Shown: positions 5,899 to 45,747 of the stretch, one piece after another
Layout: each line of letters starts with the position of its first letter
How positions within the stretch are numbered: the stretch's first letter is position 1
Made by a program: the position numbers and the translations under genes
The notes under the pieces: generated by a model
The model's database searches: none
Seen by the model: only the letters and a program-made list of their open reading frames with translations
Told to the model about the DNA's origin: nothing
Assembly: GCA_965153355.1 (NCBI GenBank)
Contig: OZ231126.1
Span: 21,762,001-21,826,000 of the forward strand
Direction: 5' to 3'
DNA from: Flaccisagitta enflata
Lineage: Eukaryota
DNA length: 64,000 nt

Positions 5899-6374
5899 CT
5901 AAGACTTGGAAACTGTGGAGGAAATCAAGAATTACCAACTGATATTATTCTATGAACTTTTGACAATCAATTTCAAGCATTCATTTATCATTTAATTCAA
6001 AAACCATACCCTAGAGACTTAGTCTTACTAGTTATCAAGCCGTCTTACCTGCCAATTTTAGGGTTTTTCTTCTCCTTTTTTTTTCTTTGATTATCTTTCC
6101 TCATTTGCTCTCATTTTCTTCTTGGTCTATTCATTTCCTCATATTTCCTCCCATTTCTTTGCCTTCCGTTTTCCTCCCGTTTTTTTCCTCCTTTTTCTGG
6201 AACACGCAATATATCCATGAATGTCTTCTTTAATCTTCGAACTTTCCTTCGAATATGCTTACCATTTGTGATTTACTTTCCTTTATTTGCTTTTGTGCTT
6301 CCTTTCTTTCAGTCTTTTTTTTCTCCTCTTTCATTGCTCTTTCACGTTTTTCGTTTTCTTTTATCTCCCTCTGT

Positions 6375-6627
6375 TTTTAGTTGCGGACACGCCACTCTAT
6401 AAGAGGCTTTGTCCGTCCGTCGGTCCGTTGGTCCGTCAGTCCGCCGTTCCGTTGGTCCATTGGTCCGTAACGATCGAGTTGAAAAGTGCGAAAACGCGCA
6501 TTTTGGATGCTGCAGTTGAATTGTTCTGTGTTTCTGAGTGTGTATGGGGTGGGCGAGGGTGCGGATGGTCGTTGCATGCCCCTGCCCATCCGTCCGCAAC
6601 GACATTGTGACCCCCACGTCACTTGTT
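6375..6627 (+). mobile_element. HINE-like element (AGTTGCGGAC subfamily; relatives at ~1487-1670 and 54275-54530)
   Basis: ttttt-agttgcggacacgccact, GTCC repeats, 3' gtccgcaac and a gtgac..gtcac stem-loop, then ttgtt. Confidence 0.7.
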
Positions 6628-6701
6628 ATCAGATCACGTTTTCTCTTCTCTGCACTAGCAAATGTTCCATCAAATTTCTAACAACACGATCTTCAATTTA
6701 A

Positions 6702-15055: not shown

Positions 15056-15356
15056 TATTGAAAGTATGCGGGATTTTTTGTTGTTGTTCGCCGATTTCTG
15101 TTACCCTTGTACCCTTGCACCCTTGCATTCTCGTACCCTTGTACCCCGGTGCTCAAAATAATCTTTGACCAACAATTGCAATGGTGTAGGTTGATCATCA
15201 CCTTAAAATTGTAGTGAATTTTGGTTGGTTGGTTGGTTGATGGTCGTTTGGTTGGTTGGTTTCGTTTAATGACTCACTCAAAAACTCTACCCCTCCATCA
15301 TTTTCATGTCAGATTGTTTGATAAATATCACATCTCTCCAACTCTCAGAAGAAAAA

Positions 15357-15578
15357 ACAAGGCCGGATACACGGCTACCCCAGTCGCGTGCGGGTGGGCA
15401 GGGGCCATAAATGAAGTCACTCCATCATTTGGGCAGGAGCAGTGAGGCCAAAAACCGCAAAAACCCAAAAAAGTAAAGTGTGACGGACAGATGGACGGAC
15501 CGACGGACCGACGGACGGACGGACCGACGGACGGACCGACAAAGCGGGGTGTAGAGTCGCGTAGCACGCGACTAAAAA
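15357..15578 (-). mobile_element. HINE-like element
   Basis: acaaggccggatacacggc...agtcgcgtgc...(GGAC)n...gcacgcgact-aaaaa; lies about 60 bp upstream of Hox exon 2. Confidence 0.75.
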
Positions 15579-15635
15579 CGTTTTTTTTTCTTTAAGATTG
15601 ATTTATATCAAACACATTTCATTGCGTCCTTGCAG

Positions 15636-21396: not shown

Positions 21397-21930
21397 TGTG
21401 TGTTTGTGTGTGTGCTAATTTGCATGTTGTAGCATATCACGTTTATACAATCGCAAAATCATATGCAAAAAACGATTCTTTCCCAAGTTACTTGACAGAT
21501 ATAGGCTGATGGAAGTCAAAGATTCTGCTATTTGAACTGAGCTAGATATTGCTTTTTTATTTGAACAGCTTCGATACTTTTTGCATTTGTGAGCGAGACA
21601 TCTTTTCATTACGGATTTAATCAGTGAAAAAAAGTACCTGTCTTTTCTTACCTTTACATGGTTGCTGTAACAGTAGCTCACATTAAATCTCTAAATTTTA
21701 GGGCATCCACAAACTGAGATCTCTCGGTTGTAAGCTGGTTGCCTCCTTATTGGACCAAGCCTCTACATCAGCTTGAGCAGGCGTAAACGAGTTGAAAATG
21801 AAATATTTTTTCACATGTAAACAAGGTGTGAAAAATCATTTCACAAAAACCTTGGTATCCTAAGCAAAATCGTTAAACTAGGTTTTTTCTCATTTCTTCA
21901 TCGTCCCCCCCCCACTTCAATTTTCAACAG

Positions 21931-22784
21931 ACCCGACAAACTTCTTCCACGCGTGTACTTCCGGCGGAAAATGCCGGACAAAGCGGAAGCCCTACGAGAA
22001 ATGGGTCACTTACTTGCTCGAGGAAGAATATCTTTCCAACACTTACATCACCAAGCAAAAGCGTTACGAGCTCTCATACAGAACCAGTCTCACAGAACGG
22101 CAAGTGAAGATTTGGTTTCAAAACCGTAGGATGAAAAGCAAGAAACTGCGAGAGAGATCGACTTCCGGCGCCACCGGAAATGAAGATGACGACTCAGATG
22201 ACGACATCGACGACGCAGATGACGACGATATTCGAGGTGGAGCGCCCCCTCCTCCGCCACCGCCGCCACAACAGCAACAATTACACCAACAGTTACAACA
22301 ATCACAGCATCATCAACAGCAACCTTCGACGGCGCCACCACAACCATTGGCGCCCAATGGAATCCCAGCGCCCTCGATGGCAAGTTTCGTAGCATCTACG
22401 TCACCAACGCCACCTCATGAATCAGCGGCGACAGCGGCGGCAGCGGCGGCGGCGGTGGCGGCAGCGGCAGCTTCAGTAGCGGCCTCGTCTTCAACCCCGT
22501 CATTATCATCGACGCCGCCAAAAGCCCACGTCGGTTCCTCTCCCCACTCTTCCTTGGAGCCCCGCCCACCACCCGCCCATTCGACCAACCTCAACCACGT
22601 CCTTAACAAAACCGGCGCTCCTTTTGGCTCCTTGGCGCCGGCTACGACTTCCTTGGCGCCGATTCCCGGCCTCATGACGCCGTCGGCGATGTCGATGGCG
22701 TCGCCGGAAACGCTGGCGGCCGCCGCAGCGGCCATTTCCGCTCTTTCAAATGGACACGCCAGAAATGGCGACATTGAAAGGTGA
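21931..22784 (+). CDS. Posterior Hox gene, coding exon 3 with homeodomain (Abd-B/Post/Hox9-13 class) and long C-terminal tail
   Basis: Acceptor ttttcaacag| at 21930. Encodes [14 protein letters not shown], then the homeodomain [60 protein letters not shown] (21972-22151). The KRxPY arm and [16 protein letters not shown] are diagnostic of posterior Hox. Stop TGA 22782-22784; spliced CDS 1716 nt = 571 aa. Confidence 0.95.
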
Positions 22785-34718: not shown

Positions 34719-35461
34719 ACATGTACAACGTCGGTCTTTCAGTCTCATTTGCATACAACTTCACGCTAACCTCCATCATTGATTGAATGTGCGAACTCGG
34801 TGGGGCGTTGGACAAACCTCGATGATACGGGCACATTGAACAAAGTGGAGAGACGAGGAGAGATATATATTCATTTTAGTCATATTTACTTTTTTTTTTT
34901 TCTTTTTGAAATTTTACGTCACTTTTGACTTGATCTGTTTGTGTATACATGTATACATAGATTTGTGGGGTGCAGAGATAGTTGTTTGTATGGCTGTCTA
35001 CATCGTCCCTTTGTACATCGCTTCTTCTTTTTGTTGCCTGTACAATAAACCTGTTTCATTCATTCGAGGAGAGATAGAGAAGGATGAAAAGGAAAGATAG
35101 CGATGGAGGTTTGGGGGTACACAAGGAAGGAATGATTTGAATATGGAGTAAAGAGAAGGTGATAGACAGGATGGAGGAACAGAAATCAAGTACTTTAGGA
35201 AGATACAAAATGTTACGGAATAACATTATAGTGGGCCTGTAAAAAAATTCTCCAATAAAATTCAAACAACCAAGGGGAAAACTGAGTGGAGAAGGAGGTG
35301 GTGGATTGAGGCAATGCACATCAGTTGCGCAAGAGAAGCGTGGAGATCAGCAGATAATTGCAAGGGCAGGTTTAGCGGGAAAGAAACTGAGTGTGGCCTA
35401 TGTGAAATATCAGAAAGCAAATGGAAGGCAAAAACGGTAGCAACAACCACAACAACAACAG

Positions 35462-35509
<48 letters not shown>

Positions 35510-35546
35510 CCAATATCGCAAATGTCATATCAATTTATTATGACAA

Positions 35547-35581
<35 letters not shown>

Positions 35582-35604
35582 GCAACAACAACAACAACAA
35601 CAGC

Positions 35605-35692
<88 letters not shown>

Positions 35693-35750
35693 GCAACAAC
35701 AACAACAACAACAACAGCAAAAACAACAGCGACAATAATGACAACAACAA

Positions 35751-35781
<31 letters not shown>

Positions 35782-35878
35782 AGCAACAACAACAACAACA
35801 ACAACAGCAACAACAACAACAAGCAGCAAAAACAGCAGCGACAACGACAAACGACAACAACGACAACAATACCAATAA

Positions 35879-35919
<41 letters not shown>

Positions 35920-35921
35920 GC

Positions 35922-35974
<53 letters not shown>

Positions 35975-36328
35975 CTACAACAACAATAACAATAACAATA
36001 ACAATAACAACAACAACAACCGAAAGCAGCAGCAGTTGAAACGCAGCATCATGAACACAAAACAAAAATGATACAAGAAAAAAATGATAACGGCCGACGT
36101 TTTACGCCATTGCCGATAACGAGGGAGAAGTCGAAGAAAAGAAATTAAAGCCGTCAGTAAAAACAGCAACAAAACCGATTCAAAGCGTCGTTTTAAAAGC
36201 TAACTCGTTTCTTCTGTCTTTATGGCGATTGCCTCGCTTGGTTGGTTAATTTGTTTCTGCTATTGCATTGGTTGAGTTGTCTGTTCGTACTGTAAATCTA
36301 TGAACGAAAACGTGCGTATCGGTGTGTG

Positions 36329-36783: not shown

Positions 36784-37575
36784 CTCTAACTTTTTTTCTT
36801 CGATTTGAAGTCACAAAACAGATTTTTATGACATCTTCTCCTTCTTTTTTTCTCTCTTCGCATTTCTTTTTTTCCCCAACCCTGGCGGTGCTGCCATCAG
36901 AACAGAGTGGCAACGCTTCTTACTTCTGCCTCCATTCTCCCCCTCTTCATCCTTCTCCTCCTCCTTTTACTCCTTCTCATCATAGAATGTCACCTTCCTC
37001 TTCCTCTTCTTTTCTCTTTTTTCCCTTTTCAAACGAAACGACATCCTCTCTCAGTTTCATTCTCCTCCTCCTACTGTTTCAATATGCCTTTCTACTTCAT
37101 TCAGCGGTTTCCATCCTCCTCCTCTTCTTCCTCTTCCCTCTCTTCCTCCTCTTTTTCTCAATGCTTCTTTTCTCCTCTCTTTCAATTCTTTTCTATCTGT
37201 GTCTCCATGCTCCATCCTAAAGTGACATCTGGGGGAAAGAGAGTGAAATGAGAGAGACAGAGAGCGACAGAGAGTCTGGGTTTGTTTCATTGATTGTCTT
37301 CCAATTTTATTTTCTTCCAACATTCTGTCTTTTGCTCTTTCTTACCTTCTACCTTTTCTGTTATGGTGTAAGTGCCGGGAAGTAAAATGACGACACAGCA
37401 ATATGATGAGGAGACAATTTACTATCTGTGGGATGTAATGTGATATTATATTGTATCCAAGGATATGATTTGATATCAAAGGAGATATTAACATCATAAC
37501 ATGTCCATCGAAATAGGAGCTATTCAAAACAATAATGATTTACTAGGCAAAGCGTAACCAGTCGGTAGTCCTGAA

Positions 37576-37778
37576 ACAAGGCGGGATACACGGCTACCGA
37601 AGTCGCGTGCGGGTGGGCAGGGGCCACATTTGAGGTCACTAGACCATTTGGGCAGGAGCAGTGAGGTCAAAGAAATAAAATCATAAAAAAAGTAAAATGT
37701 GACCGACCGACCAACCGTCCAACCGACCAACCAATCGACGGACAAAGCAGGTTGTAGAGTCGCGTGCACGCGACTAAA
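37576..37778 (-). mobile_element. HINE-like element
   Basis: acaaggcgggatacacggc...agtcgcgtgc...agtcgcgtgcacgcgact-aaa. Confidence 0.75.
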
Positions 37779-37932
37779 GATTGAAAATTTCAGGGATTAT
37801 CAACTTATTCGATACAAGCAAGTATCACTCAATTTAACACGTCCGCACCATGTAACAGACCTGCGATGTCATGATAAGAAGGTTCTTGAATCATGAATCG
37901 AGCATTGTCCTTGATTTTATCCTTTTAGGGTA

Positions 37933-40212: not shown

Positions 40213-40797
40213 CTAATCAGAGGTAACATAAGATCCGCACCCGAGGGCTCTGTCGTGACAAGTGCACAAAATTCCCCTTTCAAGAAGCCGGTTAGGAGGC
40301 TCAATGCCGCCGGTTCCATCCAATTCCAAACGAAGGCCGAGCTCAGACCCTTGAATCCATTTGTTGCTCGATTTTGCTTTAGAGCTCACCAAATCCGGAT
40401 CCACAGGCTTGTTACCGTTAATAAACTGCGGCTGAACTTCGAAGTTCCCGTTTTCCAGCCGAACTCGATTTAGTTGTGCACCGATATAGTAATAATTGAC
40501 ATCGTTATACTTGTGTTGAACATCCCGGCGCTCGGTCCACAGAATATCGGCCATTATGTTCATGGCTTCCTTGTCAATTCATCAAATCGAAGCCATTGCC
40601 CAACTTCTTGCACTCACCTTTCGCCGCATCCCATCTAATTGGCCACTCCAATCTCTTCCAAATAACGAAATCATTGACATCATCACTAAAATCTATCACT
40701 CCCATATGCTCCTTATCGGACAAACTGATCCATTTGCTGTCGATATCCTTTATCCAGTTTTGAAACTGTTTCGAAATCATATGTATCCATTCATCCA
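40213..40797 (-). CDS. Secreted Cys-rich/lectin-like gene, terminal exon: divergent C-type-lectin-like domain with one frameshift near 40576 (possible pseudogene or assembly error)
   Basis: Branch-like tactgac, pyrimidine tract and ttcag| acceptor, phase 1. Reads WDAAKGECKKLGNGFDLMN[shift]DKEAMNIM...YYYIGA...FINGNKPV...RGILC, resembling the CTLD pattern W-x-x-A-x-x-x-C...L...WIG...IC. Joins the track ORFs 40574-40798 and 40213-40563. Confidence 0.6.
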
Positions 40798-40973
40798 CTG
40801 AACAAAAAATGGAAAAAGTTTAAGTCAGTAAAACAATTTTGATCCAAGGAGTTTATGACAAGTGGAACAATATCTATCTACCAAAAAAGTAGACCAATAA
40901 AGGCGGCTAATCGCCGACTGTAAAAAAGTCGTAAATTGGTGTGTCTTTTTTTCAGTGCATGTTTTTCTGTGTG

Positions 40974-41822
<849 letters not shown>

Positions 41823-43566: not shown

Positions 43567-43666
43567 CTGGTTACTTGCGCAGATTTGAAGCAATACCAAG
43601 ACAATATGAGAAATTTTTTTCAAGATTTTGATGTAAAAGCTCTAATGTGAGATCAATAAGACGTAC

Positions 43667-43852
43667 TTTTTACGCAACAATGTTTGAATTTGCAGCCATT
43701 AATGCCAACGCATTCTCGACCATTCGTCCATCCGCGTCTACAACAAACGCCGATTCCACAGTAGGGACACTCTCCTCCGCGTCCTCTACATCCTCCTTTA
43801 TTCCAGCATTCCTCGTTTTCATGACGTAGGTAATCATAATGTTCGAGAATTC
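43667..43852 (-). CDS. Secreted Cys-rich/lectin-like gene, exon 3: 10-Cys module
   Basis: Acceptor aacccag|, donor A|GTACGT; 186 nt, phase 1-1. Translates ILEHYDYLRHENEECWNKGGCRGRGGECPYCGIGVCCRRGWTNGRECVGINGCKFKHCCVK. Confidence 0.8.
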
Positions 43853-44039
43853 CTGGGTTAAAAATTCATATCCAAATTAATTTGCTTGACTTCTAAACAA
43901 GCCCGACCGGGCAACGATGCGTCCGGACTGTGTCTCTGCGTGTATTGACTAAATACGTGACATATATGGAGATACAGATGGACAGACAGATGAAGCGACA
44001 GAATAGTGCATGAGGCTCTCAAAACACGTTTGTTGATCA

Positions 44040-45747
44040 TTAGATTCAGTACGGGATCTCACCGTGGCCTAATCAGTCGAGAAACGCGGTTTTCGCACAG
44101 GCGTTACGGACGGACGGACGGACGGACGGACGGACGGACGGACGGACGGACGGACGGACGGACGGACGGACGGACGGACGGACGGACGGACGGACGAACG
44201 GACGGACGGACCGACGGACGGACCGACCAGGCTCAAACCAGGCTCAAACCAGGCTCAAACCAGACTCAAACCAGACTCAAACCAGACTCAAACCAGACTC
44301 AAACCAGACTCAAATCAGAATGAAACCAAACCAAAACCAGACCAAAACCAGACCGAAACCAGACCTAAATCAGACCTAAATCAAACATAAACCAGACAAA
44401 AACCAGACATACACCAGACCTAAACCAGACCTAACCCAGACCTAAACCAGACATTAATCAGACATGAACCAGTCTTAAACCAGACCTTAACCATACTTAA
44501 ACCAGACTTAAACCACACTTAAACCAGACTTAAACCAGACTTAAACCATACTTAAACCATACTTATCTTTAATATCATTTAAACCAGCAGACTTAAACCA
44601 GCAGACTTAAACCATAGATTTAAACCAGCAGACTTAAACCAGATTTAAACCAGCAGACTTTAACCAGCAGACTTAACCCATTAGATTTAAACCAGCAGAC
44701 TTAAACCAGCAGATTTAAACCAGCAGATTTAAACCAGCGAGCTTTAACCATCAGACTTTACCCAGCAGACTTTAACCAGCAGACTTTAACCAGCAGACTT
44801 AAACCAGCAGACTTTAACAAGCAGACTTTAACCAAAAATGACCAAAAATGACCAAAAATGACCAAAAATGACCAAAAATGACCAAAAATGACCAAAAATG
44901 ACCAAAAATGACCAAAAATGACCAAAAATGACCAAAATGACCAAAATGACCAAAATGACCAAAAATGACCAAAAATGACCAAAAATGACCAAAATGACCA
45001 AAAATGACCAAAGATGACCAAAAATGACCAAAATGACCAAAAATGACCAAAAAGACCAAAAATTACCAAAAATTACCAAAAATGATCAAAAATGATCAAA
45101 AATGACCAAAATGACCAAAATGACCAAAAAATGACCAAAATGACCAAAAATGTCCAAAAATGACCAAAAATGACCAAAAATGACTAACAATGATCAAAAT
45201 GACCAAAATGACCAAAAATGACCAAAAATGACCAAAAATGACCAAAAATGACCAAAAATGACCAAAAATGACCAAAAATGACCAAAAATGACCAAAAATG
45301 ACCAAAAATGACCAAAAATGACCAAAAATGACCAAAAATGATAAAAAATGGCCAAAAATGACCAAAATGACCAAAATGATCATAATGACCAAAAATGACC
45401 AAAAATGACCAAGAATGACCAAAATGACCAAAAATGACCAAAAATAATTAGAAATAATCAAAAATAATAAAAAATGACCAAAAATGACCAAAAATGACCA
45501 AAATGACCAAAATGACCAAAATGACCAAAACTGACCAAAACTGACCAAAAATAACCAAAAATAACCAAAAATGACTAAAAGCAACCAATGATTCCCAAAA
45601 ACATCAAAAAAATGATTCAAAATAACTCCAGACGACCCAAAAAGACGAAAAAAAGCAAAGTGTTACGGACCGACCGACGGACCGACGGACCGACCGACGG
45701 ACCGACCGACGGGGCGGGTTGTAGAGTCGCGTGCACGCGACTAAAAA
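44040..45747 (-). mobile_element. HINE-like element(s) carrying stacked tandem arrays
   Basis: (GGAC)n, then aaaccagact-type and aaaccagcagactt-type arrays, then (aaaatgacca)n at 44830-45580; ends agtcgcgtgcacgcgact-aaaaa. Left boundary uncertain. Confidence 0.6.

Follow-up and report, generated by a model that had tools for sequence, protein, structure and literature searches.

A transcribed exon in a microsatellite-rich stretch of animal DNA encodes a single copy of an unnamed disulfide-rich module with a putative knottin-like fold

Hevein-type chitin-binding domains (CBM18; Pfam Chitin_bind_1) are glycine-rich, eight-cysteine domains of the knottin class, often present in tandem, in which a CC pair is followed by sugar-binding aromatic residues. 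The inhibitor cystine knot (ICK) is characterised by the disulfide connectivity I-IV, II-V, III-VI, and ICK peptides such as lambda-MeuKTx-1 (8f2f), Hc3a (8uwf) and delta-atracotoxin-Hv1 (1vtx) are secreted binding modules of 37–42 residues, at times arranged in tandem, with a small disulfide-locked beta-hairpin core and a central CC pair. The ten-cysteine fold of Dickkopf, colipase and prokineticin combines five disulfides with the local hairpin motif C...C-G-x-G-x-CC-R-x-x-aromatic...C. As described in the relevant preprint (Daugavet et al. 2026; bioRxiv 10.64898/2026.06.07.730663), CysRReps are short cysteine-rich repeats ending in CC, with six cysteines in the spacing Cx6-9Cx5-7Cx8-11Cx7-8CC; within secreted proteins of eukaryotes they adjoin domains active on carbohydrate or peptidoglycan, have 1,246 matches in UniProtKB, and exhibit a patchy distribution discussed there as a mark of horizontal transfer. 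Secreted cysteine-rich repeat peptides (SCREPs), as set out in PMC6262176, consist of small disulfide-rich domains whose tandem arrangement gives avidity.

The locus considered here lies on the minus strand of a 64,000-nucleotide stretch of DNA (the window, to whose first letter all positions refer), and encodes one copy of a cysteine-rich module of about 55 residues. The family to which it belongs is new and unnamed, but of a familiar type, that of the small cysteine-rich modules resembling knottins. Like the ICK peptides, the module is predicted to have a small beta-hairpin core that is locked by disulfides and includes a central CC pair; it differs from them in its greater length, in its complement of 8–10 cysteines, in an ordered extension at the N-terminus that includes a conserved L-x-N/H, and in its occurrence within large multidomain proteins. 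With hevein-type domains it shares, by general resemblance, a CC-R-x-G-aromatic stretch and the proximity of carbohydrate-active domains, but its cysteine spacing is different, none of 40 family members matched that domain in Pfam at E ≤ 10, and the domain was absent among the structural matches. The hairpin motif and potential for five disulfides are likewise reminiscent of the Dickkopf/colipase/prokineticin fold, but the second half of the module differs, no structural match to that fold was obtained, and a faint Pfam match to DIKK1-2-4_C-subdom1 in one of the 40 members (E 0.29) was far below significance. The spacing of the module (Table 1), compared by eye with the published description, does not fit that of the CysRReps, and whereas the latter have their many UniProtKB matches, none of 30 module relatives looked up came from NCBI or UniRef. 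The SCREP description fits several tandem relatives of the module (P0002–P0005, P0008, P0010 and P0013), but denotes an architecture rather than a homologous family, and the window has a single copy.

Translation of the window DNA identified a 70-codon open frame, the closing residues of which (...HENEECWNKGGCRGRGGECPYCGIGVCCRRGWTNGRECVGINGCKFKHCCVKSTSY) are followed directly by TGA. The ten cysteines within 45 residues, two CC pairs included, that had been quoted by the first-pass annotation were found exactly in this translation, and its exon (43667–43852) was this stretch truncated at a potential GT donor; the coordinates and phases that it gave (AG at 43853–43854, GTACGT after 43667) were a correct reading of the DNA letters. 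Starting at 43852, the exon is in phase 1 with a codon split as N|GA, and it must be preceded by another exon, as no ATG occurs in frame between the module and the stop upstream of it. The core retains the W, G, G, R, G, G and H of the family in their conserved positions. When 44 proteins were deployed as tblastn queries, all matches with E < 1e-3 fell within 43608–43865, confirming that the window holds a single copy.

Table 1. Positions in the window of the exon, its signals and neighbouring features.
Feature	Position	Strand	Content	Basis
Open frame, 70 codons	43653..43865	-	IFNPGILEHYDYLRHENEECWNKGGCRGRGGECPYCGIGVCCRRGWTNGRECVGINGCKFKHCCVKSTSY, then TGA	Translation of window DNA
Coding part of exon	43656..43852	-	(G)ILEHYDYLRHENEE + 45-residue 10-Cys core + VKSTSY	Translation, RNA contigs, homology
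Module core, first to tenth Cys	43674..43808	-	C-5-C-6-C-2-C-4-CC-9-C-5-C-4-CC	
AG splice acceptor, exon phase 1	43853..43854	-		X2 record 9; ATG absent in frame
TGA stop codon, probable protein end	43653..43655	-		X1 contig collinear through 43640; module often C-terminal in relatives
GTACGT, donor assumed by first-pass annotation	43661..43666	-		Sequence; sole covering contig reads through
Stretch of high contig depth	43893..43950		About 55 nt	Contigs of both metatranscriptomes
Open frame with homeodomain	21882..22781	+	Homeodomain at ~21975–22145, then poly-Q/Ala-rich sequence	Pfam Homeodomain, E 1.6e-16
Open frame, 114 codons	53391..53732	+		
Open frame, 541 codons	54533..56155	+	Microsatellite start	
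Tandem-repeat examples	35441–36020, 41230–41820, 44831–45580, 50275–51533			
Recurring ORF repeat copies	835–1137, 6272–6677, 15331–15602, 37527–37796, 45604–45864, 46374–46625, 54269–54496		...FLVACTRLYNP...SVRRSVG...TLLFF...	By eye

Transcription was assessed with contigs from two RNA runs of a single marine metatranscriptome study (X1 and X2; the two runs contained 44% and 31% of 16 sampled words), which were aligned to the repeat-free stretch 43569–44105. Near-identical RNA was present in both runs, the contigs covering 43640–43853 to a depth of 3–4 with 0–3 mismatches, and falling to zero depth at 43857–43892. Record 9 of X2 (246 nt) matched 43761–43853 with its first 93 letters without a single difference, while its remaining 153 letters matched nothing in the aligned stretch; it departs from the genome exactly at the AG and thereby supports the phase-1 acceptor, and the one extra matching base (43853) indicates G as the last base of the upstream exon, so that the split codon specifies Gly. 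Record 1 of X1 (183 nt, depth 3.2) was collinear with 43640–43822 with three mismatches, two of which are listed: one synonymous, in a Cys codon, and the other an R to S change at a variable position of the family. This record was the sole contig covering the proposed donor and extended 27 nt beyond it, and use of the GTACGT donor was seen in none of the X1 or X2 contigs. In the sampled portion (about 6%) of a raw polyA run, X3, no read matched this stretch, a result that carries no weight either way. The contigs of X1 and X2 support a real coding exon, transcribed from an animal gene and spliced on its 5' side to at least one upstream exon. Of the prior description of one phase 1-1 exon, the acceptor has RNA support and the donor has none, and the reading as an internal exon with those phases is probably wrong.

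The exon is probably the last coding exon of its gene, because the donor is read through, the stop falls five codons after the end of the module, and the module lies no more than 15 residues from the C-terminus in 9 of 13 single-copy relatives; the protein would then most likely end here, with the tail VKSTSY. The terminal position nonetheless hinges on one short, shallow contig that could have originated from unspliced RNA or from DNA in the library, and is preferred to an internal one by a modest tilt of the balance. Neither AATAAA nor ATTAAA occurs within 550 nt of the stop.

Searches of the window for the upstream exon or exons, by tblastn with relatives, by a heuristic scan and by inspection of open reading frames, yielded none, and no partner domain or signal peptide for the gene was found within the window. 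The heuristic scan for first-exon candidates (Met plus hydrophobic residues, ending G|GT in phase) on the minus strand from 43853 to 56000 returned only microsatellite translations, which were rejected, and the open reading frames at 45600–50300 offered no upstream-exon candidate by eye. A pair of C-type-lectin-like open reading frames at 40216–40819 on the minus strand was also rejected, there being no Pfam match and no tblastn match with lectin-bearing relatives. Rfam and tRNA scans around the exon gave nothing above threshold.

When the window peptide was searched with phmmer against all 1.84 billion representatives, 43 proteins were recovered at E ≤ 1e-3 (range 3.6e-19 to 9.9e-4), including 8 at E ≤ 1e-10, the best being P0002 with 58% identity. 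The cysteine pattern was shared by 39 of the 43, which also had W, G, R, G and H in constant positions; P0016 (a bacterial fn3/GDSL protein), P0027 and P0038 (SprB repeats) and P0037 (devoid of cysteines) were discarded as false family matches. A local iterative profile generated from the relatives assembled 87 full-length copies in 40 proteins, the window copy included, at one to six copies per protein, with the consensus xxxxLxNxxxxCWxxCxxxGGxCxFCGxGxCCRxGxxxxxGCxGxxGCxxxHCCV. Against this profile the window copy scored 70.4 bits, a value within the span of the highest-scoring genuine copies, and on these sequence comparisons the similarity is judged to be more than chance. No candidate emerged from protein word-index searches with the window peptide in either the longer or the near mode, and searches of the ESM Atlas with the window peptide and P0005 produced no usable match.

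Whether homologues would conserve the cysteines had been put forward as a check on the module, and the core cysteines proved to be kept in 81–87 of the 87 copies (C1 87, C2 81, C3 86, C4 84, C5 87, C6 86, C7 86 and C10 85). Conservation extended well beyond them: the W after C1 was present in 82 copies, the G before C3 in 86, the G after C4 in 87, the R and G of the R-x-G following CC in 79 (plus 6 with K) and 84, respectively, the G before the C8 position in 83, and the H two residues before the last cysteine in 82. Profile position 7 was N in 59 copies and H in 17, and aromatic residues occupied position 25 in 80 copies and position 36 in 64. All eight core cysteines and every one of the non-cysteine signature residues are carried by the window copy. 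The two other cysteines behaved differently from the core, C8 and C9 being both present in 36 copies and both absent in 50, with C8 alone in a single truncated copy. Gain or loss as a pair argues that they form a disulfide together, although kinship among the copies would inflate any statistic placed on this covariation. Two subtypes can thus be distinguished, an eight-cysteine core without, and one with, a putative fifth disulfide C8–C9, the window copy being of the latter, ten-cysteine form.

The absence of a domain name, asserted in the first-pass annotation from the letters alone, was borne out by profile searches. Pfam returned no family at E ≤ 10 for the window peptide and, for 40 aligned members, only single-member matches to unrelated families (best E 0.099); no profile for EGF, Kunitz, WAP, ShK, CBM14, Chitin_bind_1, TIL, granulin or others matched the module, and in the 26 of 39 relatives searched at full length Pfam named flanking domains only. 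Sequence searches of the PDB found only conotoxin GS (E 1.5), a profile search of the same database found nothing, and a limited search of literature text with motif strings and keywords located no description of the module. All 30 relatives looked up belonged to environmental or transcriptome collections, with merc, JGI/IMG, Logan, ENA or eukprot source labels; none had an informative name or a taxon label, the two record labels encountered being an assembler contig identifier and 'hypothetical protein'. These attributions fit the earlier suggestion of a similar motif in uncharacterised proteins of marine plankton. Searches of JGI metagenome contigs with patterns from the window peptide, and of metagenome, IMG/VR and GTDB contigs with patterns from a seq-alignment of seven sequences, confirmed no relative, a result that, with few exact patterns deployed, constitutes weak evidence of absence. 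Within the scope of these searches, the module is a conserved family that lacks a Pfam name and has not been described.

Structure prediction with AlphaFold2, using the window copy and a 40-sequence alignment, gave a confident model (pLDDT 88.6, pTM 0.75; pLDDT 90–95 over the cysteine core) with two short strands, VCCR and KHCCV, and several bridges. With an eight-cysteine relative as the query the corresponding values were 87.3 and 0.72, the two models being built on one alignment and hence not independent. Foldseek comparison with the PDB and BFVD gave no matches at E ≤ 10. When 48,161 representative PDB chains were scanned by VIA-align with both models, the only chains at Z ≥ 2 were in each case the same three ICK toxins: 8f2f (Z 2.5 with both models; 35/37 residues at 2.0 Å with the window model and 2.2 Å with the eight-cysteine model), 8uwf (Z 2.2 and 2.3, respectively) and 1vtx (Z 2.2 with both). 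Sequence identity to these peptides was 14–18%, and as VIA-align Z values under 8 may reflect only a common arrangement, the knot signal provided by values of 2.2–2.5 is consistent but weak. On the basis of these models, the module may fold as a compact knottin-like (ICK-like) mini-domain, in which an ICK core formed by C2–C6, C3–C7 and C5–C10 would be supplemented by C1–C4 and the covarying C8–C9.

The relatives place the module in many different settings, in keeping with the prior characterisation of it as a mobile mini-domain, if mobile is taken to mean present in many architectures. Pure tandem arrays with short linkers were found in P0002, P0004, P0005, P0009 and P0013, arrays with Pro-rich linkers in P0003, P0008 and P0010, and small single-module proteins of 76–90 residues in P0015, P0017 and P0031. 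Pfam identified the partner domains as Lectin_C (C-type lectin; P0020, P0029 and P0041), CBM_6/CBM_35 plus WSC (P0025), DUF642 (P0033), lysozyme-like SLT_3 (P0007), matrixin plus hemopexin (P0036), kringle plus EGF (P0039), hEGF (P0043; 25.0 bits, under the 29.3-bit cut-off) and EF-hand (P0032). Carbohydrate-related domains accordingly featured in 6 of the 10 partnered proteins, and the matrixin/hemopexin, kringle/EGF, EGF and EF-hand partners of the other 4 are not related to carbohydrates. A signal-peptide-like N-terminus was recognised in at least 7 of 39 relatives by a crude test applied to a set that includes many fragments, and by extension from these relatives the window protein would be secreted. 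A stretch of about 100 residues adjoining the module is shared by P0035, P0039 and P0042 (…LPVYWWM…IAFEE.Y.GATFEF…YASLKNFQF…); it had no Pfam match and could represent another unnamed domain that accompanies the module.

The reading preferred here, at somewhat better than even confidence, is that the window exon encodes a single copy of an extracellular disulfide-rich module with a knottin-like fold and a binding role. The module would act as a binding or avidity unit of secreted proteins, either singly or in tandem arrays, with the invariant Trp, Arg and His and the two aromatic positions forming a putative ligand-binding face, the near-invariance of these residues across unrelated architectures being suggestive of just such a conserved face. 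The preponderance of carbohydrate-related domains among the partnered architectures favours, by analogy and tentatively, a glycan or cell-wall polymer as the class of ligand, although co-occurrence with such partners does not by itself show what the module binds. A more ambitious and rather doubtful proposal is that it represents a new lectin-like mini-fold, a five-disulfide elaboration of the cystine knot whose Trp/Arg/His face would serve for marine cell-wall or mucus glycans, and which would have spread among unrelated planktonic lineages, animals as well as protists, by exon shuffling or horizontal transfer; spread across planktonic lineages would explain its presence in environmental transcripts and its absence from NCBI- and UniRef-sourced records among those looked up.

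Near-invariant non-cysteine residues, a confidently predicted fold, reuse in ten or more architectures and tandem arrays that reach six copies are the marks of a functional domain. Naming and modelling the module would annotate a slice of the 'dark proteome' of plankton and provide a handle on secreted proteins in which it is paired with lectin, CBM, lysozyme-like and protease domains; were it true that the module binds glycans, it would constitute a new small lectin scaffold.

An alternative role as a knottin-type antimicrobial or channel-blocking peptide would make the arrays polyprotein precursors cut into peptides of about 50 residues and the window gene a short secreted pre-pro-peptide. 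The fact that ICK toxins were the sole structural neighbours is in accord with such a role, as are the pure tandem arrays with short linkers, the small single-module proteins, and the recognition of tandem secreted cysteine-rich repeat peptides as a class (PMC6262176). The window core, with a net charge of +6, is also at the top of the range for ten-cysteine copies, but the 87 cores range between −7 and +9 and average close to +0.9, so that there is no family-wide cationic character, and antimicrobial activity as a property of the whole family was rejected on this spread. Since, in addition, the Z scores are too low for a claim of kinship with toxins, no conserved dibasic or other processing motif was noticed, and the module is also found as part of large multidomain proteins that contain lectin, protease and CBM domains, a defence or toxin function is considered unlikely.

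Equivalent consideration was given to the module as a structural spacer of the extracellular matrix, or a protein–protein interaction spacer, used for rigidity or oligomerisation in the manner of EGF domains and with no ligand of its own. A small, Gly-rich, disulfide-locked module would suit such a purpose, and it does lie beside EGF, kringle and matrixin/hemopexin domains and in long arrays with Pro-rich linkers; the near-invariance of W, R, H, the N/H of position 7 and two aromatics across very different architectures is, however, at odds with a purely structural use, which is accordingly thought improbable. Least credible of all is a decaying or non-functional exon, whether a relic copy or an exon-like open reading frame subject only to background transcription, since despite the lack of identified upstream or downstream exons in the window, the kilobases of tandem repeats on both flanks, the limitation of the RNA to two short, low-depth contigs from one study, and the want of any identical or close database protein (best identity 58%), the frame is open, all family-defining residues are intact with a score in the bona fide range, one contig shows splicing exactly at the AG, and of the two listed variants one is synonymous and the other at a variable site.

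The window as a whole is eukaryotic and extremely rich in microsatellites. Tandem repeats between 34000 and 54000 include (CAT)n at about 420 copies, (TC)n at about 295, a 10-mer at about 77, (CAA)n at about 191 and many more, and the exon is situated in a 2.3-kb island between such arrays. Within the intron upstream of the exon, the stretch of about 55 nt at 43893–43950 attained a summed contig depth of approximately 390–1,600 in the two metatranscriptomes, as against 3–4 for the exon. Many contigs diverged on both sides of it, with loose ends at 43895/43896 and 43948/43950 and low agreement; it had no second copy in the window and no Rfam or tRNA match, and possibly represents a short RNA element, conserved or repeated, that is common to many transcripts or organisms.

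The homeodomain encoded on the plus strand (Table 1) had its best matches among Abdominal-B and posterior Hox proteins, at 66–69% identity over the homeodomain (tardigrade, insect and nematode Abd-B), with no close orthologue in the searched database, and its Abd-B-like character indicates that the window adjoins a posterior Hox gene of a bilaterian animal. For the source genome the significance of the exon is modest, namely one real, incompletely resolved gene some 21 kb from that posterior Hox gene. About 10 kb from the exon, the two plus-strand open frames of 114 and 541 codons had no significant Pfam match, the only one being a sub-threshold STATB_N (E 0.0087), and possibly represent another gene of unknown family. 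Elsewhere, a recurring wording was discerned by eye in open reading frames beside (GACG/GTCC)n runs, and looks like a dispersed SINE- or MITE-like repeat accompanied by a tetranucleotide microsatellite.
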